A DNA stretch of 64,000 nt from Escherichia coli (GCF_016903815.1 NZ_CP069973.1), one strand, 5' to 3'. Counted from the first letter of the stretch, positions 31,966 to 52,145 are shown. Numbers and translations: made by a program. Notes: generated by a model from the sequence alone, not told the origin.

Positions 31966-33769
31966 GAGTAGGAGGCGGGATCACTCCCGCCGTCCTCTCA
32001 CACCACCGTACGTGCGGTTCCGCATACGGCGGTTCATGTTAACTCTGGAACTGCCTCTACTGTTCCAGCAGTGATATCAGACCCTGCCTCCTGAACCATG
32101 CATTCTTTATCGCCTGATTCATATGGCTTGACCCTGAGTTCCACCATGGCCCGTGGTTGTTGTACGCAGAGATCATTGCCCTGTCCTTACTCAGTCCTGC
32201 TCTTTGCAGATTCTTTGCCCGGGTTCGCGGTCTCTTCCACTGCCGCTACAACAAGCAACGCAGTTTCCGTTTGATCCAGCCATCCAGCTCCTCCAGCACT
32301 CCTCTGACTTCCGTCAGCCTGAAGTAGCTTATCCATCCACACAGCACTGGTGTCAGAGCATTGATTGTCGCTTTCACTGATTTGCTCCGGTTTCCCGTCG
32401 TCAGACTGTGGACTTTCTCCTTCAGCCTGTTCACGCTCGTCAGGGCTATCTTCAGCTTCGCCTGTTTGTGCCATGTCACACTGTACCCGAGGAACTTCCG
32501 ATCCCACGGGCGCGCCACCGCGCTCTTCTTCTCATTCACCTTCAGTTTGTTCTCCACGAACGCCCTGATGTTCTTCAGCAGATGGTCGCCCGCTTTCCGG
32601 CTGCTTACGTAGATGTTGCAGTCGTCTGCGTAGCGGCAGAAGCTGTGTCCACGACGCTCTAGTTCTTTATCCAGTTCATCCAGCAGGATGTTCGACAGTA
32701 ACGGCGACAGTGGGCCGCCCTGCAGCATGCCCGCCTGCCGTTTCTCCCTTTGCCCGTCTTTAACCATTTCCACTTTCAGGTAGCGGCGTATCAGTCACAG
32801 CACCCGCCTGTCCTTTATCGTTCTGGCCAGACGCGTCATCAGGAGTCTGTGATCCACCCGGTCGAAGAACTTCTCCAGATCCATATCCACCACCCACCGT
32901 TTGCCACCCCGTATGTAACGCTGTGCCTGTTGCACCGCCTGCTGGATAAGCCTGTCCACCACCGTCGGGATGCCTGAGGTTCTCACGCCGCCATCCGGCT
33001 TCGGGATATCCATCCGGCGTATTGCCCGCGGCTGGTAGTTTCCGTCAATCAATGCCTGCCTGACGCTGCGCCAGTTCTTCTTCAGCCACGGTTTCAACTC
33101 CGCCACGCTGAGGTTATCCACCCCCGCCGTGCCTTTGTTTTCCAGCACGCGCTGATAAGCCAGCATCAGGTTTTCTCTCGTTATCACCGCTTCCATCGTC
33201 AGCGGCACTTCCGCTTTCGTTTGCCCACCCGCCGCCGTGCTGATTTCAGCGCCATCATGCAGCCCTGACGGATACTGTCCGTCTCCTCTGCCGCTGGTCG
33301 CAGTTGCCTGCGCTTGTGCTTCATTAATCATCATCGGGTTCGGATGTCCTAATCACAGTTAATCATGTTCGGCCCTTCATGCTGCCGGTTTTGCAGCACT
33401 ACTACGGCGTCGGCTGACTTCTGCCGCCCCATCCCGGCGCCTCACGGCGCCGGTAGCACACTGGCAGGGCGACAGATCTCCCGGGGTAATTCACGTGACT
33501 TTCCTGCTTATGCCTGTCGGCTTTACGTCACAGCGTTCCGTGTGAGTATCGGGCTTTGGTGATTTGTGCCACCTTACCCTGCTGCGCCGCCTTAACCGCT
33601 TCCTGTTCGTCAGGCCAGCATTTTGCATCCAGCTTCCTTCAGATTTCACCTCGCGATGAACACCCTTGCCTTCCGCTAACACTTCCCCTCACCGGGTGTG
33701 TGGAGGACTTTCACCTCTTAGTCGTTCTTCTGCCACCACAGTTGAAGAACAGCGCCAGTCACGGCGCAC
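31966..33769 (-). mobile_element. Degenerate group II intron (class C-like) inserted after a terminator hairpin
   Basis: 5' end GTGCGCC immediately after hairpin 33771..33810; domain V-like CCGTATGCGGAACCGCACGTACGG near 32000; disrupted RT ORF inside. Confidence 0.65.
32246..33334 (-). pseudogene. Group II intron reverse transcriptase, disrupted (in-frame stop, internal deletion, C-terminal truncation)
   Basis: Two abutting ORFs (179 and 175 aa) with RT motifs FCRYADDCNIY and GGPLSPLLSNILLDELD. Confidence 0.8.
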
Positions 33770-33819: not shown

Positions 33820-34725
33820 TTAAAACAGGGGAACCAAGGTAAATAATCCAATGGTCGCCAACAGATTAATCATCGTGGTCATAATGGTGATGACCATCGC
33901 CGGCGGGTCAATATGTGTATCGCCGTGGATCAGGAAGATACGCGACATCAGTTCACCCAATATCGCGCAAATTATGCCAACGATAGCAGCCCAAATCAGG
34001 CTACCTGATGGCACCGCTACCAACGCGGCAGGCAGCGAAATATGATGTGACACCGGTACCTGAGTATTGAAATGCAGGAAAATCAGTGAGAACGCGGAAA
34101 TACCAAACGCCAGCAGCGCGCCGTTGCCGCCAAACTTCAGGCCTAAAAAGCCTGCCATCAAGCCAATACCCAAGCCCAGCACGGAAAGCTGCGGAATGCG
34201 GCTATGGTAAGGTATCCAGCACTTATCCTGCGGCGGATAGCAGTGACGAATTCCCTGCTCCGGTTTTCCAAACAGGCCAGTTTTACCGAAAACCAGACGC
34301 GAGACCACGCCAGAAATCACCACGGTTAGTGCCACGGTATCGGTCCAAGCATTGCCGGACGGGAAGGCCGGAATCTGGTTCAACCCCCAGGCGATGATGT
34401 AACCAACCGCCCCAAAAACCCCGCCTACCAGCAGCACATCGTAAGCCGCCAGACCGCTCAACCCGGCAGTGATATCACGCCCGGAACCCAGCTTGCCTTT
34501 CTTCGCTGCATACGCCGTCGCCGCAACCCCAGCGGCAAAGCCGCCGGTGTGCGGGCCAAACAGTCCAAACGGAAAAGTAATAAAGTCCGATGATGCTCCG
34601 GTAATAATTTGCACTACCGTCATGGCGATAACCAGAAGCCCAACGAATTCAAACGCCGCCAGCGCGCCAACAGCCGCACCAAATATGCCGCCGCCGAAGG
34701 CAACTACAATATCTAAGCTATTCAT
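33820..34725 (-). CDS. Integral membrane protein (putative substrate transporter of the locus)
   Basis: 301-aa highly hydrophobic, Gly/Ala-rich ORF. Confidence 0.6.
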   Translation of the reverse strand: MNSLDIVVAFGGGIFGAAVGALAAFEFVGLLVIAMTVVQIITGASSDFITFPFGLFGPHTGGFAAGVAATAYAAKKGKLGSGRDITAGLSGLAAYDVLLVGGVFGAVGYIIAWGLNQIPAFPSGNAWTDTVALTVVISGVVSRLVFGKTGLFGKPEQGIRHCYPPQDKCWIPYHSRIPQLSVLGLGIGLMAGFLGLKFGGNGALLAFGISAFSLIFLHFNTQVPVSHHISLPAALVAVPSGSLIWAAIVGIICAILGELMSRIFLIHGDTHIDPPAMVITIMTTMINLLATIGLFTLVPLF

Positions 34726-34861
34726 CTAGCTTACCTCTGTAATTAAATCAAATGACAATATAAGTAATGCAGATTGCTCTATATTTTTAAAATTGAAATA
34801 GTATTCATGCGTAACAAATAAACAAGTGCAGCATTTTTTCGCACTCTTATTACATCTTTTA

Positions 34862-35779
34862 TTAACCGCCGATATGGCAGTTAAAACCTAAGGATTCAAC
34901 CATTGCTTTTAACTCTGCCATTTGGGCTTCTTCGATACTTTTTGTATCGCCCATCGGATACTGGCGACCAAGCAGATTATATTTATTTTCACCGAAGCTG
35001 TGATAAGGCAATAAGTGAATGGTATCGACGTTCTGCATCAGGCGGGCGAACTCCGCAATATTATGGATTTCCTGCGAATTGTCATTCACTCCTGGGATCA
35101 CAGGAATACGCACAACCACTTTGGTTAAAAAGGAGATGCGCAGCAGATTCTCCAGAATCACTCTGTTATTCACGCCGGTGTTGCGCTCATGGATTTCCGG
35201 ATCGATGGCTTTAATATCGGTCAGAGCAAGATCGACATAGGGAAATACCTCATCAATCACCGCTTTGGTGGTGAAGCCGCTTGTTTCAATAGCGGTGTGC
35301 CAGCCTTTGGCTTTACAGGCTTTAAGCAACTCGCGGGCAAATTCCGGCTGCGCCAGCGGTTCACCACCGGACAGGGTAATCCCGCCGCCTGAACGCCGGT
35401 ATAAATTCTCTTCTTTTTCCAGTTCGCGCATCACTGCCGTTACCGACATACGCTTGCCCTTCATTTCCAGCGCACGGGTAGGGCAAATCTCAGTACATTT
35501 CCCACACTGAATACAGCGGTCGCGATTGATAAACCAGGCATTAGTAATGGAAAGAGCCTGTTGTGGGCAAGCATCAATACATTTTCCACAGCGGATGCAA
35601 TCATTCTTTTTAAATAATAACTCTGGGCTGTGACGTTGTGATTCAGGATTACTACACCATTTGCAGGACAGCGGGCAGCCTTTAAAAAAAGGAATGGTTC
35701 GAATGCCTGGACCATCATGCAAAGAATAGCGTTGAATATTAAATATGACGCCTTCGGTTTCGTATTCAACTTTATTCAT
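34862..35779 (-). CDS. Glycyl-radical enzyme activating enzyme (radical SAM, with ferredoxin-like insert)
   Basis: CPLSCKWCSNPE radical-SAM motif plus CIRCGKCIDACP and CIQCGKCTEICP clusters. Confidence 0.9.
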   Translation of the reverse strand: MNKVEYETEGVIFNIQRYSLHDGPGIRTIPFFKGCPLSCKWCSNPESQRHSPELLFKKNDCIRCGKCIDACPQQALSITNAWFINRDRCIQCGKCTEICPTRALEMKGKRMSVTAVMRELEKEENLYRRSGGGITLSGGEPLAQPEFARELLKACKAKGWHTAIETSGFTTKAVIDEVFPYVDLALTDIKAIDPEIHERNTGVNNRVILENLLRISFLTKVVVRIPVIPGVNDNSQEIHNIAEFARLMQNVDTIHLLPYHSFGENKYNLLGRQYPMGDTKSIEEAQMAELKAMVESLGFNCHIGG

Positions 35780-35887
35780 AACATCACTCTATATTTACCA
35801 GATGAATTACCTTTTCAGATAAAAGTAACAACCAGAAGTCGTGGAGAAAGTAACGGGCTATATATTGATACATAGCCCGTCTGGTAT

Positions 35888-38440
35888 TTACGACAGTTGT
35901 TGCTCAGTACGGCTGATTATGTCGTCCTGAACTTCTTTCGCTAAAACTACCCACTGGGCGCTATAGCCCGCAACGCGTACCACCAGATCCTGATGTTGCT
36001 CAGGATTTTTCTGGGCTTCGATCAAAGTGTTGCGGTCGATAACGTTAAATTGAACGTGCATCCCTTTCTTATCGAAGTAGTGACGTATCAGGCCGCTGAA
36101 GTTGCGCAGACCGTTCTCGCCAGCCAAAGAAGACGGCAGGAATTTCTGATTATAGAGCGTACCGTTGGAGGCGATAAAGTGATCCAGTTTGGCAACTGAG
36201 TTGGCTGCGGCGGTTGGGCCAAGGGTGTCTTTACCCTGACGTGGAGATACGCCATCCGCCAACGGCTCTTTCGCCAGACGGCCATCCGGCAGTGCGGCAA
36301 CGTCTTTACCAAACAGCACGTTCGCAGACACCGGATAGATACCAGCCTGGAACTGGCCACCGCGCGGGTTGGTATATTTCTCAACTTCCTGGCAGTAGAT
36401 CAGCGCACATTTACGCGCTACTAAATCCACGTCATCGATGTCGTTACCGAAGCACGGTGTGTTTTCCAGAATACGACGGATCTCCTCGTGACGGGACATA
36501 GTGCCGGATTGCACCGGTGCTGCACTGCCGGAAGTCAGCTGGCGATAAACTTCGTTTTTAATCGCTGCCGGATCCAGAGCGCCATGCTGTTCAATGATGC
36601 GTTTCACCACATCGTAGATATCCTGCTCGTTGAGCGAGGATTTCGCCGCTGGAGTGTGCGGGTTCGCACCCACCGGATAACCGAAGTTGGCGTCCAGTGC
36701 GCTTTTCAGTTCGCTCAAAGACAGTTTACGATCTTCGAATACCTGTTTCTGGATGGCATAGACGGAGTCGCCGGTATCGGCTACGCCGAATGCTTGCGGC
36801 CCAGTAAAGTTGTAAATCGCCCCGCCTTCCTGGAGAGATTTACCACGGCCGATACAGTCGTCGACCAGTGCTGATAGGAACGGCAGCGGGCAGCGTTCGC
36901 CGTGGGCAATATCCACGCTGTTACAGGCTTCAACCAGTTGATGAACGAAGTGCGCCATCTGTTTCTGGAACGCGGTGTAGAAGTCCTCCATGCTGGTGAA
37001 CTGAGTCAGTTCGCCAGTCACTGGGCCTAGCTGTTTATTGCCAACGCGACCGTTGTTCAGGGTGATTTCCAGCACTTTTGCAACGTTAAAGAACGCGGCG
37101 TCATGCCAGCCCTCGGTGCGATGCGGTGCCTGCGGCTCTACGCAGCCGATGATACAGTAATCACGCGCATCACGCAGCGAAATGCCACGGTTCTGCAGCG
37201 CCGGGATGATTACTTCATCGTTGTACATTGCCGGAACGCCCAGGCCCATACGCACCAGCTCGCAAGCGCGATACAGAAACTCATCCGGAGTACCCTGCCA
37301 TACGCGGATTGAGAAGGATGGCTGCGGCAGACGCACATGGGCAGTCGCTTCCATACACATGTAGCTCAGATCGTTAGTTGCGTCGCGACCGTCTTCTGTC
37401 TGGCCGCCACAGCACAGGTTCTGGAACACTGCGTAACCGGCAAACGCCTGGGCAGAGACTTCGTCACGCGTTTTGTTAATGTCGTTAAGCTTGATCCAGC
37501 AGCAATCCACCAGTTCCTGCGCGAATTCACGCGAGATAGATTTGTCCGACTCCAGATACGGGTACATATACTGGTCGAAACGCCCCGGGGAGATAGAATG
37601 ACCGCTGGATTCAATCTGTAACATGCTCTGAATAAACCAGAATGTCTGGCATGCTTCCCAGAATGTGGTAGCACCGTATTCCGGCACGCGAGTACAGTTT
37701 TGAGCAATCTGCTCCAGTTCGCGTTTACGGGTCGGATTGCTCTCCTGCTGCGCCAGACGGGATGCTTCTTCAGCGTAACGATGGGCGAAACGGATCGCTG
37801 CGTTATAACTGATCAGCACCGCATTATAGAACTGTTCTTTCTTTATATATCCTGGTTCAGTGCGATCTAATGATTCCAAGGCACGGCTAACTTCATTAAT
37901 GATACCACGGAAACCAATTTTCAGCACTTTACCGTAGTCAACACTGACATGACCGACGCCCCCGAAGAAGTAGTTACCAACAGTGAATACACCGCTCGCC
38001 ATACTCTCTTTAGTGCCTTCTGACATGTAAGATGCCGCCAGAGCACTGGTAGTTTTACCCGGCCAGTATTTAAATGCTTCATGAAGCTCCTGAGCAGTCT
38101 TTTTCGGGATAACAAACGGGTCGGCAATACGGTGTTCCATAGTCTCAAACTCTTTTTCCACCCAGTCGTAGGAGAACTCAGGGCAGATTTCAGTTGAGCG
38201 AGGATTAATAGTTACCGCTCCAACGATTAATTCGTCTGGGCGAATTGTTACCGGTAATTGGTTAAAGATTTTTTCCACCACTTTAGCACGACGCATAATC
38301 GCGGGCAGTTGTTCTGTTTCTTTATATGCTTCGGTTGCTAACACCGCGCGTTCTGATTCCACATACGGCTTCGCCGTCAGGATCATATTTCTCAGTCTTA
38401 CAACACGGTCTGTCGGATTAGAAAAGCCTTTCTCTAACAT
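35888..38440 (-). CDS. Glycyl radical enzyme (PFL-like), 850 aa, probable 1,2-propanediol dehydratase-type
   Basis: C-terminal glycine-radical motif RVAGYSAQWV and catalytic loop GCVEP; substrate is inferred from locus type. Confidence 0.85.
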   Translation of the reverse strand: MLEKGFSNPTDRVVRLRNMILTAKPYVESERAVLATEAYKETEQLPAIMRRAKVVEKIFNQLPVTIRPDELIVGAVTINPRSTEICPEFSYDWVEKEFETMEHRIADPFVIPKKTAQELHEAFKYWPGKTTSALAASYMSEGTKESMASGVFTVGNYFFGGVGHVSVDYGKVLKIGFRGIINEVSRALESLDRTEPGYIKKEQFYNAVLISYNAAIRFAHRYAEEASRLAQQESNPTRKRELEQIAQNCTRVPEYGATTFWEACQTFWFIQSMLQIESSGHSISPGRFDQYMYPYLESDKSISREFAQELVDCCWIKLNDINKTRDEVSAQAFAGYAVFQNLCCGGQTEDGRDATNDLSYMCMEATAHVRLPQPSFSIRVWQGTPDEFLYRACELVRMGLGVPAMYNDEVIIPALQNRGISLRDARDYCIIGCVEPQAPHRTEGWHDAAFFNVAKVLEITLNNGRVGNKQLGPVTGELTQFTSMEDFYTAFQKQMAHFVHQLVEACNSVDIAHGERCPLPFLSALVDDCIGRGKSLQEGGAIYNFTGPQAFGVADTGDSVYAIQKQVFEDRKLSLSELKSALDANFGYPVGANPHTPAAKSSLNEQDIYDVVKRIIEQHGALDPAAIKNEVYRQLTSGSAAPVQSGTMSRHEEIRRILENTPCFGNDIDDVDLVARKCALIYCQEVEKYTNPRGGQFQAGIYPVSANVLFGKDVAALPDGRLAKEPLADGVSPRQGKDTLGPTAAANSVAKLDHFIASNGTLYNQKFLPSSLAGENGLRNFSGLIRHYFDKKGMHVQFNVIDRNTLIEAQKNPEQHQDLVVRVAGYSAQWVVLAKEVQDDIISRTEQQLS

Positions 38441-38488
38441 ATAAAACTCCCGAATATATTTTGTTAACCTTGCGGAGATGCCAGGGTA

Positions 38489-39064
38489 TTAATGAATAAT
38501 GCTAGTGCCCATTTGAGTAATAAAGTGACGTAATATTGCTGGATGCCCCATCCAGGTAGTCGCGGTTATTAAATTACCATCCACAATGGCTTCATCATCT
38601 GCGGCAGTGACCCACTGGCCACCCGCCATTTCCACTTCCGGTTTTACCGTAAAATATCCCGTCAGTTTCCGGCCTTTTAATACCCCAGCAGCGGCCAGAA
38701 TTTGTGGGCCATGACAAATTGCAGCAACAGGTAATGTTAAATTCATCGCGTAATGCACGATATCCAATACTGACTTATTTAATCGCAAGTATTCCGATGA
38801 ACGCCCACCAGAAATATAAACACCACTATATTCCTGTAACCTTATGTCATCAAATGATGCAGTTAATCTAAAAAGATGTCCGGGTTTTTCGGTGTAGGTC
38901 TGATCACCTTCAAAATCATGAATCGCGGTTTTAATAAACTCGCCGGTACGTTTTCCCGGACACACTACATCCACTCTGAAACCTAACATGTTTAATGCCT
39001 GCCATGGCACCATGACTTCATAGTCTTCAGAGAAATCGCCTGTGATAAGTAATATCTTCTTCAT
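38489..39064 (-). CDS. DJ-1/PfpI-family protein
   Basis: Nucleophile-elbow motif AICHGPQIL; start at internal Met MKKILLITGD. Confidence 0.7.
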   Translation of the reverse strand: MKKILLITGDFSEDYEVMVPWQALNMLGFRVDVVCPGKRTGEFIKTAIHDFEGDQTYTEKPGHLFRLTASFDDIRLQEYSGVYISGGRSSEYLRLNKSVLDIVHYAMNLTLPVAAICHGPQILAAAGVLKGRKLTGYFTVKPEVEMAGGQWVTAADDEAIVDGNLITATTWMGHPAILRHFITQMGTSIIH

Positions 39065-39074
39065 AAGCGGACTC

Positions 39075-39374
39075 TCAAAACTGGTTATCGTCTTCCTCAA
39101 TGATTCGCATGGCTTCATGCACCGCCGCGACTTCGCCAAAAATGGCCAATGTGGTGATATGCTGAGGGCAACTGCCAAAGATTTCTGATACCACCACATT
39201 GGCGCTTTTACTGGCTACGTCGGCATAAAAATAGAGATCCGGAACCGGCAGTATTAACAAACCAATGGCGTCGATGCGAATCAAATCCAAACGCGAACGA
39301 AACTCCCCGGGCATACGCCGTTTCAACATAGCCAAAATATCCGGGGTCGGTGCGTTTATGATTCGTTTTTTCAT
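39075..39374 (-). CDS. EutS/PduU-type permuted BMC shell protein, GrpU-like, with GSCPQ motif
   Basis: Permuted BMC pattern similar to EutS; GxCPQ motif associated with Fe-S binding in GrpU. Confidence 0.7.
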   Translation of the reverse strand: MKKRIINAPTPDILAMLKRRMPGEFRSRLDLIRIDAIGLLILPVPDLYFYADVASKSANVVVSEIFGSCPQHITTLAIFGEVAAVHEAMRIIEEDDNQF

Positions 39375-39397
39375 CTTTAAGTCACCCTTCGCGATAG

Positions 39398-40915
39398 TTA
39401 GCGAATATTCAGCGCTTCAACCATTACACAGCGACGACGGCGTGCAAACGAACGCGCTGACGTAAGTCCCTCGCCGGTCGGTCCGGCAATCGTAAAGGTG
39501 GCATGCCCTTCACCGCCCACCCCCAGCCCTGCATAAGAGGGACCATTTTTAACAAAGATGGTGGTCTGGATCAGGCGCGCCATTTTGGTCAGCTTTTCGA
39601 CGTTGGTGGAGTGCATAACCGCGGTATGACGATTGCCGTGCTCCACTTTCACCGCCAGCTCAATGGCTTCATCAACATTGTCTACGCGCACCACCGGCAG
39701 GACCGGCATCATCAGCTCATGCACCACAAACGGATGTGTTTTCTCAGCCTCAATTAAGATGACTTTGATATCGTCGCCAACCTGGATTCCCAGTTGTTGC
39801 AGGATATAGCGCGCATCTTTGCCGACAAAGGCGGTATTCGGCCCAGTGCCTTTTTCATTAAGCACCAACGATTGCAGTTGTTGACTTAACTTCTTATCGC
39901 ACAACAGATAGGCACCGCTTTTCTTCATGCAGTGAATCAGATAGTCCGCTACCTGGTTCACAACAATCACCTCTTTTTCCGCCACGCACGGCAGGTTGTT
40001 GTCGAAGCTACAGCCCTTAATGATGTCGCGGGCTGCTTTTTCGATATCCGCCGTTTCATCTACCACAGCTGGCGGGTTACCTGCGCCTGCACCAATCGCT
40101 TTTTTACCTGATGACATCACGGTTTTCACGATGGCTGGACCGCCAGTCGCTACCAGCATGTTGATACGTGGGTCGTTGATCAGGACGTTGGTATTGTCGA
40201 TGGACGGTTTGGTCACCGTTACCACCATGTTAGCCGGTGCGCCCAACTGGGCAAGCTTGTTGTTGATCAGCTCAACCGCGTACAGCGACACTTTGCGCGA
40301 GCGCGGATGTGGACTGAACACCACAGTGTTGCCTGCCGCCAGCATGCCTATGCTGTTGTTGATAATGGTTTCGGTCGGGTTAGTCGTTGGTGTAATCGAA
40401 CCAATCACTCCGAACGCAGAGTATTCGATCAACGTTAAACCCCCGTCTCCGGAAACCGCGCTGGTGGTCAGATCTTCGATACCTGGCGTTTTCAGCGCTG
40501 CGACGCGGTTTTTGATCAGTTTGTCCTCGTAATTCCCCATGCCGGTCTCTTCCACCGCCATACGGGAAAGGGCACACAGCACATCTTCCTGCAGGAAGAC
40601 ATCGCGAATGCCATTGATAAACGAGGCGCGGTCTTGCATAGAACAGTGGCGATACTGCACTTGTGCCAAGACGGCGGCGGAAATCGCCTCATCCATGGTA
40701 TCGAATGCTCCAGTGCTAGCATTCGCTACCTTCGCTACCTGAGAGATCGCACTGGCGTCGCGCACGGAAGAGTGCTGCGCCAACGCCTTAGCGACAATTT
40801 CATCCAACCCGTCGACCCGCGCTGCTTCTGACGTGGCGGGAGCTTCATCCGGTGTTGCTTTGGTGAATTTGCTCAGAATGGTCGAGACAGCCTGAGCGAT
40901 TTCAATATCATTCAT
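39398..40915 (-). CDS. CoA-acylating aldehyde dehydrogenase (PduP/EutE family)
   Basis: 505-aa aldehyde dehydrogenase-like sequence with N-terminal extension typical of encapsulation peptides. Confidence 0.85.
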   Translation of the reverse strand: MNDIEIAQAVSTILSKFTKATPDEAPATSEAARVDGLDEIVAKALAQHSSVRDASAISQVAKVANASTGAFDTMDEAISAAVLAQVQYRHCSMQDRASFINGIRDVFLQEDVLCALSRMAVEETGMGNYEDKLIKNRVAALKTPGIEDLTTSAVSGDGGLTLIEYSAFGVIGSITPTTNPTETIINNSIGMLAAGNTVVFSPHPRSRKVSLYAVELINNKLAQLGAPANMVVTVTKPSIDNTNVLINDPRINMLVATGGPAIVKTVMSSGKKAIGAGAGNPPAVVDETADIEKAARDIIKGCSFDNNLPCVAEKEVIVVNQVADYLIHCMKKSGAYLLCDKKLSQQLQSLVLNEKGTGPNTAFVGKDARYILQQLGIQVGDDIKVILIEAEKTHPFVVHELMMPVLPVVRVDNVDEAIELAVKVEHGNRHTAVMHSTNVEKLTKMARLIQTTIFVKNGPSYAGLGVGGEGHATFTIAGPTGEGLTSARSFARRRRCVMVEALNIR

Positions 40916-40975
40916 CTTTAAATTCCTTACTACTCTTCATCTGCCGACCGCGCCGCGTGCATCGTCATCAGATGC

Positions 40976-41761
40976 TTAGATATATGGCGTCGTGGTGGAT
41001 TTAATTTCCACCGGATCTAACGTGGAGAGCAGTTGTAGACCGACTTCACGCGCGGCAATCACCGCCTGACGTACTGCACCGGAATCACCGGAGAAGGTGA
41101 AGATCACTTCGTTACTAAAGCTGGTGCCTTGCGACGGGCTGGCATAACCCACCGGGTCAATCACGGCGGATTTCGCCGCAGCGTCGGCAATCACCAGGCC
41201 AATCGCCGCAGGCGAGGCACAGGTCATCCCGAAGGATTTACCAATCGGCGCACCCAGCGCTTTATTCAGCGCGTAGCTGGCACGAGCGGTGTACTGGAAT
41301 TCAAGATGTCCGGCTGACGAGCCATAAACGTCACCCATGGTGCGTTCAATTTCAGACAGCGCCACTTCAACCGCACGCCTGACGTCGGAAACATCAGACG
41401 CACCGAAAATAATTAAGCAACCGTGTCCGCCACCTCCTTCGGTATCGCGGGCCAGCTCAATAGAAATAATTTCGCTGTTGGTTGCTTTAATCGCTTCGTC
41501 AGCCGCAAAAATTTGCGGGCCTGCGCCAGTACGTGCGCCAAGAATACCGATAGAGCGATATTTCTTGTCGATATTCATGACTTCATGCAATTGATTATCA
41601 ACATTGGCAATCACTAGGCCGATAGTGTGGCCCAACGCAGTGCCGACAAATTCCGTAATACCGCAACCAGCGAAATTCGCTGCTGTTTTAGCTTCCGGTG
41701 AGATATCGGTTTGTTTATTCATTACGTCAGATATAATCTGCTCAACAAGATTATCTCTCAT
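40976..41761 (-). CDS. Tandem-BMC-domain shell protein (BMC-T, PduB-like)
   Basis: 261-aa protein with PduB-like N-terminus MRDNLVEQIISDV. Confidence 0.75.
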   Translation of the reverse strand: MRDNLVEQIISDVMNKQTDISPEAKTAANFAGCGITEFVGTALGHTIGLVIANVDNQLHEVMNIDKKYRSIGILGARTGAGPQIFAADEAIKATNSEIISIELARDTEGGGGHGCLIIFGASDVSDVRRAVEVALSEIERTMGDVYGSSAGHLEFQYTARASYALNKALGAPIGKSFGMTCASPAAIGLVIADAAAKSAVIDPVGYASPSQGTSFSNEVIFTFSGDSGAVRQAVIAAREVGLQLLSTLDPVEIKSTTTPYI

Positions 41762-41782
41762 GATCAGTATCCTTTATTGTTA

Positions 41783-42064
41783 TTAACCGATAGCCTTCGG
41801 TAGAATTTTTTCCACCTCAATGTGTGGGCGTGGAATAACATGTACGGAGACCAGTTCTCCCACTTTACTCGCAGCAGCGGAGCCCGCATCTGTCGCGGCT
41901 TTCACTGCGCCAACGTCGCCGCGAACCATCACAGTCACCAAGCCGGAGCCGATTTTTTCATAACCCACTAGGGTCACGTTGGCAGATTTCACCATGGTAT
42001 CTGCAGCTTCAATTGCAGAAACCAGACCTTTCGTTTCAACCATTCCTAATGCTTCTTGTTGCAT
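41783..42064 (-). CDS. BMC-H shell protein (PduA/PduJ-like)
   Basis: [45 protein letters not shown] canonical BMC domain; start at internal Met. Confidence 0.9.
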
Positions 42065-42348
42065 AACGACCTCAATATTTCCGATAGAAAGAAAACGTGC
42101 ACAGAGGAATAGCAATCTACGGATTCACCCATGTGCATTAATTATTTAATTATCATAATGCTAAGGTTATTCAGACAAAATGTTTTGCGCGTCAGTGGGA
42201 CTATCTTGCTTTTGCATTCCCGCAATTGACAATAAAATCCACCCGAGGTTTGTAATAAAAGATCTGCGTTTAAACTTCCTTGCAAAATAGCCCCGCTCTG
42301 AATAGCGATCATAATTACTGTTAAAACTGTCGTATTTTTGCCAATTAG

Positions 42349-43545
42349 TTATGCCGTGCGGGCAATCTCCGCTGCATCTATAGCAATCATTTTTTCTTCA
42401 TTGGTTGGGATGACCGCAATCTTCGTGGTGTCGGTTTTAGAAATCAGTCCGCTACGTCCGCCGAACAGCTGCTGGTTACGTTCTTTATCCAGTTCCAATC
42501 CCAGCGCCTGAAGGCGTTGCACGGTAAGTTCTCGAATTAACGCCGAGTTTTCGCCAATTCCACCGGTGAAAATCAGCGCATCGAAGCGTTTAAGCGAGGT
42601 CACGTGGCCGCCGATATGTCGTGCGAGACGATGTACTAACACGTCGATGGCTAACGCTGCCCGTTCGTGGCCCTCATCACGCGCCTGCTGAAGGGTGCGG
42701 CAATCGCTGGATAAGCCGGAAATCCCCATTAGGCCGGACTGGTTATTGAGCATTTTGTACAGCGTGTCGAATGTTTGACCTGTGCGTTTCGCCAGATATG
42801 CGACGACACCAAAATCAAGATCCCCGCAGCGCGTGCCCATTACCAGCCCTTCCAGCGGGGTCATACCCATTGAGGTGTCAATGCTCGTGCCGTTTTGCAC
42901 CGCACATAGCGATGAACCGTTGCCCAAGTGGGCAATCACGATGCCATGATCCGCCGGGTCGAGATCTAGTGATGCAAGCGCTTCTGCGGCAATATAGCGG
43001 TGAGATGTTCCGTGAAAGCCGTAACGTCGCACCATATAATCTTGCTGGAACTCCAGCGGGATCGCATAGGTGTAAGCAGCCGGAGACAAGGTCTGGTGGA
43101 ACGCAGTATCGAACACCGCAATATGCGGCAACGCGGGCAACAGAGCCCGAGCCGCTTCAATACCAATCAGGTTGGCAGGGTTATGCAAAGGGGCCAGCAC
43201 CGACAGCGCGCGGACTTTTTCGATCACATCATCGGTAACCAGTACTGATCTTTTGAAGTCGCTGCCGCCATGAGCCACGCGGTGCCCAACGGCGTTGATG
43301 GCTTCCAACAGTTGCTGTTCGTCGAGCTTCGCGAAGAGCACTTTGAGCGCATGCTGATGGCTGGCGTCATCCAGCGCGACAGTGGATTTATGGCCGTCTC
43401 GGTCTTTAAACGTTATGACAGCATGATCAATACCCAGTCGTTCCGCTAGGCCCGACAGCAACGGCTGATCTGCATCCTGAGGAATGACGGAGAATTTCAT
43501 TGATGAGGAACCACAATTAATCACTAATACACAAGCTAAAGACAT
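42349..43545 (-). CDS. Acetate/propionate kinase (AckA/PduW family)
   Basis: VLVINCGSSSMKFSV N-terminal motif; start codon at 43543..43545. Confidence 0.85.
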   Translation of the reverse strand: MSLACVLVINCGSSSMKFSVIPQDADQPLLSGLAERLGIDHAVITFKDRDGHKSTVALDDASHQHALKVLFAKLDEQQLLEAINAVGHRVAHGGSDFKRSVLVTDDVIEKVRALSVLAPLHNPANLIGIEAARALLPALPHIAVFDTAFHQTLSPAAYTYAIPLEFQQDYMVRRYGFHGTSHRYIAAEALASLDLDPADHGIVIAHLGNGSSLCAVQNGTSIDTSMGMTPLEGLVMGTRCGDLDFGVVAYLAKRTGQTFDTLYKMLNNQSGLMGISGLSSDCRTLQQARDEGHERAALAIDVLVHRLARHIGGHVTSLKRFDALIFTGGIGENSALIRELTVQRLQALGLELDKERNQQLFGGRSGLISKTDTTKIAVIPTNEEKMIAIDAAEIARTA

Positions 43546-43573
43546 GATGCCCCCTGAAATGGACTGCAAAAAA

Positions 43574-44071
43574 TTAACGGGTTGTTGTGAGGGGATAACG
43601 CAGAACGCTAAACTGCGCCATCGCCTGGCGGGCGATGAGCATATCTTCCTCAACACTGCCGCCGCTGATGCCGATGCCGCCTAGTAAGCGCCTGCCCGAC
43701 CAGCAGGGAAAACCACCGCCGAAGCAGCAGATATCTTTTTCTTTCTCAAGGCCGTACAAATCACCACCCGGCTGTACCAGCGTTGCCAGTTCGTGAGTTG
43801 GCATTTTGAGAGCTACCGCGGTCCAGGCCTTTTGTGGTGCCAAGGTATGGCTGACCAGCAGGGCGTTATCCATGCTGAAGAAAAAACGCTGCTGACCGCA
43901 GGCATCCACTAGGCTAAAAACGATCGATACATTGCTGGACTGTGCCATTTCCCGGGCCAACTTTGCCAGCAGTTCACTGTCCTCCAGGCTCAGCGACATC
44001 CGGAGTTCCGGTAACTGCGTGGCAATAGCCTCATTAATCCAGTTGTCGAGTGAAGCCTCATTCGCAGACAT
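43574..44071 (-). CDS. GlcG/HbpS-like (DUF336, PduO C-terminal domain-like) protein
   Basis: 165-aa ORF with GGIGISGG motif. Confidence 0.6.
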   Translation of the reverse strand: MSANEASLDNWINEAIATQLPELRMSLSLEDSELLAKLAREMAQSSNVSIVFSLVDACGQQRFFFSMDNALLVSHTLAPQKAWTAVALKMPTHELATLVQPGGDLYGLEKEKDICCFGGGFPCWSGRRLLGGIGISGGSVEEDMLIARQAMAQFSVLRYPLTTTR

Positions 44072-44098
44072 AAGTATTCCTCAGCGTACGCGCCGCTA

Positions 44099-44368
44099 TT
44101 AACCGTTAAGTTCGAGCGTGTCGACGATACCCACCACGGCAGCGTCAATCACCGAGTGATCTTTGTTGTTGCTCATACGCGCCGAACTGCCGGTGGTGAT
44201 GATCACAATCTCTCCATTGCCCGCGCCGACAGTATCAACTGCCACCTGGGCATGGACAGTCGGCTGATAGTTTTCATCGAGCCGCGCCACTATCAGCAGT
44301 TTTGAGCCATTCAGCGAGGCGTGTTTGGTGGTGGAAACCAATGCGCCAGTAACTTTAGCGAGGTACAT
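44099..44368 (-). CDS. BMC vertex protein (BMC-P, EutN/PduN/CcmL family)
   Basis: MYLAKVTGALVSTTKHASLNGSKLLIV... matches the EutN/PduN pattern. Confidence 0.85.
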   Translation of the reverse strand: MYLAKVTGALVSTTKHASLNGSKLLIVARLDENYQPTVHAQVAVDTVGAGNGEIVIITTGSSARMSNNKDHSVIDAAVVGIVDTLELNG

Positions 44369-44379
44369 ATTTCCTCCGG

Positions 44380-45105
44380 TTAACCATGGATAACAGTGAG
44401 ATTACGCCGCTGGATTTCATCTCTGGCAGCAGGGGTAATCAGCGTGTCGCTCTCAATGCGCAGCACTGTGCCAATGGTCAGTAGGCGGATATCGCTCTGG
44501 GTGATTAAACGTTTTTTACCGGCTACTGTCAGGGTGGATTGGCTTCCTTGCACCGACTTGACATGGGCTGCACGTTTACCGAAAAGCGTAATGCCATAGC
44601 TCTCTAGGACCTGAGCGTAACCTTCCAGACAAGACAGCAGTGGCATCGGTAATTCGCTATCGACGCATTGTTGATGCAGCGTGGCGATAATCTGTTTACG
44701 GTGCTGTAACGCCTGAAATACAGTTTCACAGGCCAGATTATCGCGAATGCCCAGCGCAATTTTGCTCATGCTGTTGACAGAGAGCGCAGGCAGATAGAGC
44801 ACCTCATAGTGAGGCGGCGATCTGTCAAATCCAGCACGAGAACCACGCTGAATTAGCGCATCCATGCAGACAGATTTCAGCGCCGACTGGCTGGCGCTGT
44901 GAGAAAAATTTACCCACAACTGATAGCCCGCCAGCTCAAGCGCCTCAAGGCAGTTCAGCGTTTCCGGCAGCGAGGAGATATCCTCACCAGTCACCACTAC
45001 GCAGACATTTTTCTGCGCGACGGATTGTGCCAACACTTCAGCGATGACCCGGTCCAGCAGTTGCGATAAGGTTTGATTGTCCATTGATTTACCCCTGGTC
45101 CGCAT
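44380..45105 (-). CDS. Microcompartment-locus protein of unrecognised family (241 aa); alternative start at 45084
   Basis: ORF inside the operon between the eutJ-like and vertex genes; no motif recognised. Confidence 0.55.
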   Translation of the reverse strand: MRTRGKSMDNQTLSQLLDRVIAEVLAQSVAQKNVCVVVTGEDISSLPETLNCLEALELAGYQLWVNFSHSASQSALKSVCMDALIQRGSRAGFDRSPPHYEVLYLPALSVNSMSKIALGIRDNLACETVFQALQHRKQIIATLHQQCVDSELPMPLLSCLEGYAQVLESYGITLFGKRAAHVKSVQGSQSTLTVAGKKRLITQSDIRLLTIGTVLRIESDTLITPAARDEIQRRNLTVIHG

Positions 45106-45909
45106 TCATGGCGATGCCTAATGGTGTGACCAATAGTGGCTCTGCCGAAGGAATCACATTTTTACCGGTTTGTTTACTGAACACGTTGGCAAACTGGCTG
45201 AAGCTGCTCGCGCCACCTACCAAATAAATATTTTTTACCTGCTGGGTAGCGAACCATCCCGACACCAAGCTGGCCATTTTCTGGGCCACCGGTAGCACCA
45301 GGGTAAAGACCTGCGCTTCCTGCCCGTTTTTTTTCATTTCTTCCGCCTCGGCATAAGGCAAGCCCAGCGCGCCAGCGATCACCAACTTCATATGGCTTCC
45401 ACCGGTGGGCTCATCGGCACTGAACGTCACTTTACCGCTTTTCAAAATGCTCATGCCGGTGGTGCCTCCTCCGACATCCACCACCGCCCCGTTTTTAATA
45501 TTCAGCGCGCTGGCAGCGGCTACCGGTTCATCTAGTACTTGGGTCACGATAAAACCCGCCAACTCCACTACGTTGACGATCACTTTTGTGTTGCCTTCAG
45601 AGATCCCCGGTGGGACTGCGATCGCCGCGCGCTCCAGCGTGCAGCCCTGTTTCTGTTCAAGAATTTGTTTGAGACGTGCTACTACCCGGCTGGCGGTCAG
45701 GTAATCCACCACCACGCCGTCTTTCACCACATTGGAGGGATACATTACCCCTGCCACCGGCTGGTTATCTTCATCCAGCACCACGATTGCGATATTGGCG
45801 GTACCGAGATCCCCCCCACCTTCAACGCGCCGGAGTAGGGCCGACATTCGCCGCTGTCAATCAGCGCGGCCAATTCGTGAAATCGGCAGTTTTCGGGGCT
45901 GTTAGCCAT
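45089..45909 (-). CDS. EutJ-like actin-fold (Hsp70-type) protein with an apparent frameshift at a 7-nt C run (45811..45817)
   Basis: ORF from 45847 starts at the DLGT phosphate-binding motif; an ATG at 45909 in another frame encodes ...ALKVGG, which would precede DLGT after a 1-nt shift. Confidence 0.6.
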
Positions 45910-46588
45910 GGCGCGCAGCCTGTTTTATGCCGCGAACGGTATCGCCATTACGCAGACCGACGCCGTTAGCTTCTTCCATATCAATATGCAGTTCCAGCAC
46001 TGCATCCGCCGTGACGCGTACCACTACATGGCTGAGCACACCACCGCGCGGACCGTTTGTTTGCACATCGATTTCCATTCCGTCATGCAGGCCGTGCAAT
46101 TCGGCTTCTTCGGGCGAGATATGGATATGGCGCCAGGCGACAATCATGCCGTTGTGTTTCACCACCCGCCCTTTCGGACCGATGATTTCAATGCCCGGCG
46201 AATCCAGCAGATCCCCCGACATGCGCACCGGAGCTTTAGTGCCCAGCGCAAAGCCGTCGGCCACAGAGATTTCCACCTGCGTGGCATTACGCAGTGGCCC
46301 TAACACGCGCACTTTGTTGAGCTCGCCTTTTGGCCCGCGCAGCGTCACCATCTCTTCGGCGGCATACTGACCGGGCTGTTTCAACGCTTTAGAACGGGTT
46401 AGCGTAGAGCCGTAGCCAAACAGAATGTCCATATCTTCACGGCACAGATGAACATGGCGGTTGGACACGCCCACCGGAATATTCAGCGCGACGGGCGCGG
46501 CAGCAGGCGCTGCCGTTTTTTTACTGGTGGCAAGTTCCTGCAAAATTTGTTGGGTAATCCACTCGGCTTGTTGTTCGGTGTAATTCAT
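45902..46588 (-). CDS. Phosphotransacylase, PduL type
   Basis: GVSNRHVHL ... ALKQPGQYAAEE ... AWRHIHISPEEA motifs. Confidence 0.85.
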   Translation of the reverse strand: MNYTEQQAEWITQQILQELATSKKTAAPAAAPVALNIPVGVSNRHVHLCREDMDILFGYGSTLTRSKALKQPGQYAAEEMVTLRGPKGELNKVRVLGPLRNATQVEISVADGFALGTKAPVRMSGDLLDSPGIEIIGPKGRVVKHNGMIVAWRHIHISPEEAELHGLHDGMEIDVQTNGPRGGVLSHVVVRVTADAVLELHIDMEEANGVGLRNGDTVRGIKQAARHG

Positions 46589-46727
46589 AATGGGTACGAC
46601 CTGATTATTGGGTTATCTTATGGGTAATGGGCGTCTAACGATCAGGATAGGGAGTAACGACGCCCGGTTTTTGTTTATCAGCAGGACTTTTTTGACTGCT
46701 TCACGGAGGCTGAACAAAGTTATCCAG

Positions 46728-47846
46728 CTAGCCGGTAATCAGGTCGATCAACCCTTCGACATCATGCGTCGTCACCTGCCGCGGGTTCGACGCGGTACAA
46801 CCGTCGGCCAGCGTCGAATTCACCAGTGCGCTGCGCAACTCGATGATTTTTGCACGGTCGATACCCAGTTCGCTGAGAGTGACGGGGATGCAGAAATGGC
46901 GATTGATCTGGCGGATCTCCTGAGTCATCAGCGCGATGGCCTGCTCCGGTACCGCATGGTCAATGCCTATGATTTGCGCGCAACGGTGATAGCGATCGCG
47001 GGTTTCAGTGCTGGCCCGTTTGCTGTTGAAGTCGATGACAATCGGCAGCAGCATGGCGTTAATTTTGCCATGAGGAATATGCAGCATCCCGCCGATGGCG
47101 TGTGCCATGCCGTGTACCAACCCCAGCCCGGCGGAGTTAAATGCCATGCCTGCCATACAGGAGGCATTGTGCATGTGGGTGCGCGCCGCAATGTCTTTTT
47201 CGTCGTTAAACACCTGCGGCAGATAGCGCCAGGTCAACGCGATGGCTTTTTCCGCCAGCGCATCGCTAAAGTCATTTGAGCCAGTAGAGACAAAGGCTTC
47301 AATGGCATGGGTCAGCACGTCCATGCCGGTATCTACCGCGACATGACGCGGCGCGGTTAACACTAGGTTAGGATCGAGAATGGCGATTTCCGGCACCAGT
47401 TGCCCGGAGATCAACGGATATTTGCGGCCATTTTGCGGATCAGAGATGATCGCGTAGGACGTCACTTCAGAGCCGGATCCGCTGGTTGTGGGAATAGCAA
47501 TGAGATCGATTTGATGATCTCCAAAATACTCTTCCAATGTGACTTTAATTCCTTTCGCAGCGTCCAGCGACGAGCCGCCGCCGAGGGCGATAATAACGTC
47601 GGGCTTAAAGGCTTTAAAACGCGCCGCGCCGGAAGTCAGAATATCAATATCTGGATCCGGAGTAACCTCGCCGAAAATGCATACCGATGCCTCAGGCATA
47701 TGGCTTATTAAATAACGAGTTTTACCTGATGACATCATAAAATCATCGGTGACAATACCGACTCGTTTATTATTAAATTGGCATAGAGAGGTTATTGCCT
47801 CTTCACCAAAATAAATTTTGGGGCACGAAAAATAATAGCGGGCCAT
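46728..47846 (-). CDS. Iron-containing alcohol dehydrogenase (PduQ/EutG-like), first gene of the operon
   Basis: GGGSSLDAAK and His-rich metal site (HGMAHAIGGMLHIPHG). Confidence 0.85.
   Translation of the reverse strand: MARYYFSCPKIYFGEEAITSLCQFNNKRVGIVTDDFMMSSGKTRYLISHMPEASVCIFGEVTPDPDIDILTSGAARFKAFKPDVIIALGGGSSLDAAKGIKVTLEEYFGDHQIDLIAIPTTSGSGSEVTSYAIISDPQNGRKYPLISGQLVPEIAILDPNLVLTAPRHVAVDTGMDVLTHAIEAFVSTGSNDFSDALAEKAIALTWRYLPQVFNDEKDIAARTHMHNASCMAGMAFNSAGLGLVHGMAHAIGGMLHIPHGKINAMLLPIVIDFNSKRASTETRDRYHRCAQIIGIDHAVPEQAIALMTQEIRQINRHFCIPVTLSELGIDRAKIIELRSALVNSTLADGCTASNPRQVTTHDVEGLIDLITG

Positions 47847-50357: not shown

Positions 50358-52145
<1,788 letters not shown>

Follow-up and report, generated by a model that had tools for sequence, protein, structure and literature searches.

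What kind of protein is encoded on the minus strand between positions 44380 and 45105 of a 64,000-nucleotide stretch of Escherichia coli DNA (GCF_016903815.1 NZ_CP069973.1), and what does it contribute to the bacterial microcompartment whose genes surround it? The whole stretch is referred to as the window, and positions are counted from its first letter. A first-pass annotation had described the product as an unrecognised protein of 241 amino acids that could not be assigned to a known family. The open reading frame (ORF) runs from ATG to TAA over 241 codons, and its 726 nucleotides are 100% identical to a RefSeq coding sequence labelled "propanediol utilization system flavoprotein GrpD". The gene was thus known under a name beforehand, and the label "unrecognised" was wrong. 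The grp genes reportedly received their names in a genetic study of the locus by Lundin et al. in 2020. The grp locus builds a GRM3-type microcompartment, which ferments 1,2-propanediol via a glycyl-radical diol dehydratase. Comparison with other families places GrpD securely as a microcompartment-specific protein with a flavoprotein fold, related to the TIGR02536 family and to PduM. With regard to function we lean, by analogy with PduM, towards a low-copy lumenal adaptor that would couple the enzyme core to the shell.

The gene and the parts of the protein are listed below. Residue numbers throughout refer to the 241-amino-acid form.

44380..45105, minus strand: grpD ORF as annotated in RefSeq, 241 amino acids plus stop, 100% identical to WP_001329683.1
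45022..45084, minus strand: amphipathic helix at the N-terminus, MDNQTLSQLLDRVIAEVLAQS, candidate signal peptide for encapsulation, from the AlphaFold2 helix, the hydrophobic moment and the PduM alignment
44581..45009, minus strand: flavoprotein-fold (HFCD/UbiX-like Rossmann) domain, residues 33-175, from Pfam, Foldseek and the family profile
44734..44793, minus strand: signature motif LPALSVNSMSKIALGIRDNL, equivalent to the HFCD PASANT...K.A.G..DNL flavin-site motif, aligned to EpiD and UbiX
44518..44580, minus strand: variable, predicted-disordered linker, residues 176-196, from the AlphaFold2 confidence and a gappy alignment
44383..44517, minus strand: C-terminal module of about 45 amino acids, KKRLITQSDIRLLTIGTVLRIESDTLITPAARDEIQRRNLTVIHG, common to PduM and TIGR02536, from profile matches

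The structure prediction and the Pfam search that the first-pass annotation had proposed were both run. An AlphaFold2 model built from 34 homologues reached a mean predicted local distance difference test score (pLDDT) of 83 and a predicted template modelling score of 0.71. It contains a helix at residues 8-28 followed by a connector of lower confidence, a region of alternating strands and helices with pLDDT above 90 (residues 33-175), a stretch with pLDDT below 50 (residues 179-195) and a small strand-helix-strand-strand-helix-strand unit at residues 199-240. The hydrophobic moment of the N-terminal helix is 0.59, a value reached by 1.5% of shuffles, and the length of the linker varies among the aligned homologues. 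The Pfam family PF02441 (Flavoprotein) matches residues 33-142 with an E-value of 6.1e-6, and a weak PduM-like C-terminus was found in the same search. PF02441 also matches 44 of 54 family members at E ≤ 0.001, the best at 1.9e-14. Foldseek comparison of the model with the Protein Data Bank (PDB) retrieved UbiX, Pad1, DmrB, CypD and DpaB (E 5.6e-6 to 1e-2, probability 1.0), which identifies a flavoprotein fold; the target-normalised template modelling scores were 0.5-0.6 and the identities only 13-19%. By sequence, a profile of the wider family matches DpaB, a flavoprotein decarboxylase, EpiD, human PPC decarboxylase and UbiX with E-values of 2e-7 to 2e-4. A search of solved structures with the single GrpD sequence gave nothing significant (EpiD, E 0.68), and only profiles reached the HFCD proteins. 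Weak NCBIfam matches were obtained to AfpA and dihydromethanopterin reductase. In the signature region, P106, L108, S109, N111, S112, K115, I116, A117, D122 and N123 are invariant in the 34 homologues. The first loop reads T-G-[G/S/A] in the wider family and [S/T]-G-[E/D]-D in the GrpD clade, with T-G-E-D in E. coli GrpD. Binding of a flavin by GrpD is plausible from these features.

The relation to PduM emerged from profiles. An exhaustive profile search put the family at 1046 cluster representatives with E ≤ 1e-3, of which 272 reach E ≤ 1e-10; the majority are 210-290 amino acids long and match from end to end. GrpD matches TIGR02536 ("ethanolamine utilization protein") over residues 99-239 with an E-value of 3.8e-9 and the PduM model TIGR04493 over residues 193-237 with an E-value of 2.5e-5. 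The Pfam PDU_like match (PF15953) is weak (E 0.049), and matches to PduM-type models are confined to the C-terminal 45 or so amino acids (residues 189-237). Distant members of the family match TIGR02536 as well as the PduM models. When profiles were compared with an alignment of 17 genuine PduM sequences by hhalign, the Enterobacterales GrpD clade gave a probability of 79.7% (E 1.5e-5) and the broad family of 54 sequences a probability of 96.6% (E 6.6e-10) over 107 columns. GrpD residues 113-241 are paired with PduM 57-163; they correspond to 106-234 of the shorter form starting at Met8, which is described below. The N-terminal helix of GrpD also falls in register with PduM 1-14 (84.5%, a short stretch of 14 columns), and the predicted secondary-structure elements of the two proteins are colinear. 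GrpD is judged on this basis to share a common, if remote, ancestry with PduM. It would be the enterobacterial GRM3 representative of a large family found only in microcompartments, which includes TIGR02536 and an internally shortened PduM. PduM had been ruled out by eye in the first-pass annotation, and that exclusion is overturned by the profile-profile comparison and by the position of grpD in PduM's syntenic slot. By its own standard, homology to a characterised accessory protein, the first-pass description is thus refuted, although the homology to PduM is remote and the scores lie below the curated PduM cut-offs. The remainder of the earlier judgement stood in part: profiles for EutQ, PduS, PduH and PduV/EutP gave no match to GrpD in Pfam or NCBIfam, while the RefSeq name, the PF02441 match and the PduM homology make the protein assignable after all.

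The gene order points in the same direction. The genes that define the position of grpD are as follows.

45902..46588, minus strand: grpB, PduL-type phosphotransacylase (NF011652, 257 bits; RefSeq name)
45089..45847, minus strand: grpC, EutJ family (Hsp70/actin fold), directly upstream of grpD, 252 amino acids (TIGR02529, 384 bits; RefSeq name)
44099..44368, minus strand: grpE, EutN/CcmL vertex pentamer, directly downstream of grpD, 89 amino acids (profile match, RefSeq name, synteny)
40976..41761, minus strand: grpI, trimeric shell protein of the PduB type, with an N-terminal extension like that of PduB (PRK15415)

The placement of the ORF between a eutJ-like gene and a vertex gene, as first described, was borne out by the matches given for grpC and grpE. 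Synteny was compared in 37 loci, comprising seven with distant family members, 26 grp loci of Enterobacterales, three Clostridia-type loci and E. coli. The Enterobacterales loci were taken from species-representative genomes, in a scan with alignment A1 that returned mostly Enterobacterales. A EutN/CcmL vertex gene lies directly downstream of the full-length family member in 36 of the 37 loci, among them E. coli and every one of the Enterobacterales and Clostridia-type loci; in the 37th it lies directly upstream. The family gene thus always adjoins EutN/CcmL in the seven loci with distant members, and precedes it in six of them. In locus L006 (934-2645) the family member follows three tandem EutN/CcmL paralogues and is itself followed by an aldehyde dehydrogenase, a PduS-like protein and a shell protein. 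An EutJ-like gene is found directly upstream of the family gene in four of the seven, with the phosphotransacylase just upstream of EutJ where the contig reaches. The gene order of pdu operons is pduL-pduM-pduN, and in Firmicutes pduL-eutJ-pduM-pduN. The block grpB-grpC-grpD-grpE is read as the counterpart of PduL-(EutJ)-PduM-PduN, with GrpD in the slot of PduM. Among the Enterobacterales grp loci, grpD is present and intact in 26 of 26, and grpC is absent from 15 (L014-L019, L024-L030, L033 and L034), in which grpB is followed directly by grpD. EutJ appears dispensable for the grp locus because grpC is missing from these 15 while the pair grpD-grpE is constant.

One of the distant members, P0151, has a strong PF02441 match and lies between shell and vertex genes in locus L004 (639-6616). 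A UbiD-family decarboxylase and an amidohydrolase/adenine-deaminase-like protein are further products of this locus, which represents an unusual microcompartment type. UbiD enzymes need prenyl-FMN (prenylated flavin mononucleotide), which is made by proteins of the UbiX fold.

The C-terminal module deserves separate description. In GrpD it follows the pattern …LIT..DI…TLITPAARDE…, and T221, L222, T224, P225, A226, A227, D229 and E230 are invariant in the 34 homologues. A hidden Markov model (HMM) built from the last 45 residues of 147 family members matches the PduM C-terminus with 41 bits, the N-terminus of Salmonella EutT with 21 bits and the N-terminus of E. coli EutQ with 15-17 bits. The EutT and EutQ sequences were checked against their NCBIfam equivalogs, on which they scored 571 and 484 bits. 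Within microcompartment loci the same HMM matches the N-termini of EutT-type adenosyltransferases, of the sugar-phosphate isomerase RpiB and of a EutQ-like cupin, as well as those of small orphan proteins encoded beside pentamer or shell genes. Occurrences of the module elsewhere were located as follows.

Locus L003: 7719-8477 and 12880-13191
Locus L037: 263-1060
Locus L038: 6938-7333
Locus L039: 205-600
Locus L040: 5297-5983
Locus L041: 9977-10381
Locus L042: 1121-1780

From this distribution the module looks like a portable targeting or docking domain. Held et al. reported that the N-terminal 100 amino acids of EutQ are needed for binding the shell hexamer EutM in vitro, and in a published computational atlas a TIGR02536 trimer is predicted to be stacked on the EutL shell trimer. 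Taken together, the two suggest by analogy that the module of GrpD may dock on shell proteins.

GrpD diverges rapidly. In each of the 26 Enterobacterales grp loci (L009-L034), compared with window positions 33820-47846, no other protein has diverged as far. Its median identity to the window protein is 45%, and that of the other 14 proteins ranges from 64% (GrpF) to 98% (GrpH). The ratio of nonsynonymous to synonymous substitution rates (dN/dS) is 0.16-0.20 (about 0.17) for GrpD against six homologues and 0.04-0.17 for its neighbours; it exceeds that of almost every neighbouring gene compared, typically two- to four-fold. The GrpD values indicate purifying selection. Across the 34 homologues, 28 alignment columns are invariant. 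A few invariant residues in a protein that otherwise drifts fast suit an adaptor or scaffold in which a handful of contact or ligand sites are critical, and divergence of this kind appears typical of an adaptor rather than of a core enzyme.

The adaptor role favoured here for GrpD is modelled on PduM. Johnson et al. described PduM(1-23) as a signal sequence that is enough to direct GFP to the Pdu core and noted by HHpred that the rest of PduM resembles Rossmann-like flavin-binding proteins; PduM was said to have no known homologues outside Pdu compartments. In the study of Yang et al. (2022), deletion of pduM left the cargo core separated from the shell and gave aberrant, elongated shells, and PduM was placed between the PduB(1-37) peptide and the cargo. 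By the same scheme, GrpD would enter the cargo condensate by means of its N-terminal helix. Oligomerisation would come from the flavoprotein domain, a proposal based on the trimeric building blocks of HFCD proteins, and this domain may also hold a bound flavin. Docking on the shell would fall to the C-terminal module, with the PduB-type GrpI, the vertex protein GrpE or a hexamer (GrpH, for instance) as possible partners. GrpI is a candidate partner by analogy with PduB(1-37)/PduM: PRK15415 (PduB) covers it over its full length (1-261), and TIGR04501 begins only at residue 36. The guess of the first-pass annotation at an assembly or cofactor-handling role agrees with what this evidence suggests, the role itself being one that we infer.

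Several observations weigh against an adaptor of this type. GrpD stays below every curated threshold of the related models, with 36.5 bits on TIGR02536 (cut-off 152.6), 24.2 bits on TIGR04493 (cut-off 50) and 17.2 bits on NF011957 (cut-off 179). The AlphaFold2 model of PduM has a pLDDT of 91, and Foldseek found nothing for it in the PDB below an E-value of 0.04, with UbiX only at 0.07-0.2; because PduM thus has no significant structural match, its link to GrpD rests on profiles and synteny and not on the fold. The invariant flavin-site signature, in a protein that otherwise evolves fast, argues for a ligand-dependent function that PduM, lacking the motif, could not share. For the choice of a shell partner of the C-terminal module, the analogy with EutQ is the sole ground. 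Finally, no biochemical characterisation of GrpD was found in the accessible literature.

The conserved signature is also among the grounds for a different role. It is less probable, although far from negligible, that GrpD is a working flavoprotein, an encapsulated one-electron carrier that might, for example, feed the radical S-adenosylmethionine activase GrpN, which installs the glycyl radical of GrpM. Such a role is compatible with a structural adaptor role. The flavoprotein fold is accompanied by strict conservation of the signature motif, and the wider family keeps the canonical T-G-[G/S/A] first loop together with S/T68 and A71. AfpA and dihydromethanopterin reductase, to which the weak NCBIfam matches were obtained, are redox flavoproteins, and the fold comparison also retrieved DmrB. 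No PduS-type electron-transfer protein is annotated in the E. coli grp cluster. Axen et al. (2014), who listed "a flavoprotein" and "a EutJ homolog" as GRM3 ancillary genes, suggested a peripheral enzymatic or electron-shuttle role. However, the family also occurs in B12-dependent EUT loci with PduS adjoining and without a radical activase, so that the shared function would not be specific to the activase. The first loop is acidic in the Enterobacterales clade of the family, where flavin-binding relatives carry G, S or A, PduM is functional despite total loss of the motif, and divergence as fast as that of GrpD is unusual for a redox enzyme.

The same fold could instead be read as that of a catalytic HFCD/UbiX-type enzyme whose substrate would be a metabolite of the pathway or a cofactor; it might be a flavin prenyltransferase or a decarboxylase of the cysteine or aromatic-acid type. 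The nearest solved folds are indeed UbiX flavin prenyltransferases and EpiD-type decarboxylases, and one distant family member shares its microcompartment locus with a UbiD-family decarboxylase. This is nevertheless very unlikely, given the identity of only 13-19% to these enzymes, the additional targeting-type elements carried by the family at both termini and the fact that no curated enzyme model was matched above its cut-off. We also know of no step in the 1,2-propanediol pathway that would call for decarboxylase or prenyltransferase chemistry. Least credible is the idea that grpD is a decaying or functionless passenger gene. GrpD is the least conserved protein of the locus, and variants fused to grpC through a 1-nucleotide deletion occur in public assemblies; yet its dN/dS of 0.16-0.20 is that of a constrained gene, it is intact in every Enterobacterales grp locus of the set while grpC is missing from 15, and to the 28 invariant columns are added more than 1000 related clusters. 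The adaptor coupling core to shell is therefore retained as the preferred reading of GrpD, at the strength given at the outset.

Apparent fusions of GrpD to its neighbours were considered and rejected as evidence of interaction. The 335-amino-acid protein P0001, a grpC-grpD fusion, results from a 1-nucleotide deletion at the grpC stop codon. The AlphaFold DB entries A0A376JU67 and A0A485A1G3, labelled EutN (313 amino acids) and CcmL (354 amino acids), align to GrpD and could pass for fusions of GrpD to a vertex protein; they are probably merged ORFs from error-prone assemblies or annotation and not natural fusions.

grpD is judged a real gene and not a chance ORF, because it is identical to a RefSeq coding sequence, has homologues in 26 other Enterobacterales grp loci and shows the dN/dS given above. 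As annotated, its start overlaps grpC by 17 nucleotides; the spacer to grpE is 11 nucleotides long and includes GGAGG. Scanning for promoters and terminators gave no promoter-like site within grpD or next to it, and what looked like terminators in the adjoining genes were weak consensus matches only. Co-transcription with the neighbours is plausible because the gaps are minimal and no promoter-like site appeared in the scan. The start codon probably needs correction, as in the following feature.

44380..45084, minus strand: probable true grpD coding region, start at Met8, 234 amino acids, from homologue N-termini and the Shine-Dalgarno sequence

The Met8 position is the start in 24 of the 34 aligned homologues (MDxQxLSQ...). 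Its ATG (45082-45084, minus strand) lies 4 nucleotides past the grpC stop codon, and an AGGGG Shine-Dalgarno sequence is found at 45092-45096, 7 nucleotides upstream. No obvious ribosome-binding site was seen in the sequence upstream of the annotated Met1 ATG. Met8 is taken as the likely start because most homologues begin there and because of the position of AGGGG; the Met1 of RefSeq would then be 7 codons too far upstream.

The RefSeq annotation around grpD shows the whole grpA-grpP cluster. It includes an alcohol dehydrogenase, the PduL-type phosphotransacylase, the EutJ-like GrpC, GrpD and the vertex protein GrpE, then the heme-binding protein GrpF, a propionate kinase and the shell proteins GrpH, GrpI and GrpK, and further an aldehyde dehydrogenase, a PfpI-like protease, the glycyl-radical diol dehydratase GrpM and its activase GrpN. 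The GrpF homologue in locus L005 matches the Pfam family HbpS-like. Between grpO and the sensor kinase gene grpP, at 32246-33334 (minus strand), two short ORFs are labelled in RefSeq as "hypothetical protein" and "reverse transcriptase domain-containing protein"; they appear to be the remnant of a mobile element inside the cluster. Outside the cluster, at 50358-52145 (plus strand), the window carries an intact gene for a NERD+UvrD helicase of 595 amino acids, which is matched by PDLC01087, a candidate defence model of PADLOC (E 4e-140). This helicase gene is truncated beside an IS3 element in strain FDAARGOS_497 (L001, 6014-8706).

As a gene, grpD is ordinary: a named part of a genetically studied E. 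coli locus present in about 10% of complete genomes. Matches to its 726 nucleotides occur in 538 of 5426 complete E. coli genomes, and in 536 of these the identity is ≥ 99%. The wider proposition, which we put forward tentatively and would not count as probable, is that GrpD, TIGR02536 and PduM form one flavoprotein-derived family, a general core-to-shell (or vertex-associated) adaptor of catabolic microcompartments. The C-terminal module would then be a portable shell-docking domain that EutQ, EutT, RpiB and orphan proteins also use for encapsulation, and PduM would be a reduced, flavin-free descendant and not an invention specific to Pdu. To our knowledge, tethering of core to shell is understood only for Pdu (the N-terminus of PduB together with PduM) and for carboxysomes. 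Should GrpD and TIGR02536 prove to be relatives of PduM at full length, GRM, EUT and other metabolosomes would offer a test of the Pdu assembly model. Cargo loading into engineered compartments could then draw on the conserved C-terminal module as a candidate general tag. A further question raised by the family is whether it represents a flavin-requiring assembly factor or an enzyme fold turned scaffold. The GrpD protein is not discussed by Sutter (2021), and no mention of grpD, of PduM with a flavoprotein in any relevant sense or of PduM with GRM3 was found in the literature searched, which lacked key subscription papers. Modest new leads follow from uniting GrpD with PduM and from the portability of the C-terminal module, although either may already have been published.

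Compared with known systems, the GrpD described here is the same gene as that of E. coli CFT073-type grp loci, with identical sequence and grpA-grpO gene order and no difference. The HFCD/UbiX flavoproteins (EpiD, PPC decarboxylase, UbiX/Pad1, DpaB and DmrB/AfpA) have the same fold and have in common with GrpD the signature P-x-x-S-x-N-[ST]-x-x-K-x-A-x-G-x-x-D-N-L. They differ in the first loop, which is [ST]-G-[GSA] instead of T-G-E-D, whereas GrpD has an extra N-terminal helix and a C-terminal module and is confined to microcompartment loci. The TIGR02536 family, found in EUT2-type loci of Firmicutes and others, is embedded in a block of phosphotransacylase, EutJ, family member and EutN as in grp, and carries the same C-terminal module. 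Its members are shorter (about 207-217 amino acids) and their signature motif is partly decayed. PduM, the core-shell linker of Salmonella, is homologous to GrpD over its C-terminal 107 columns and occupies the same slot between phosphotransacylase and vertex genes, and in both systems there is a PduB-type shell protein with an N-terminal extension. However, PduM has 163 amino acids against 234 for GrpD; it is without about 50 residues of the first Rossmann half, and the flavin-site signature is lost.

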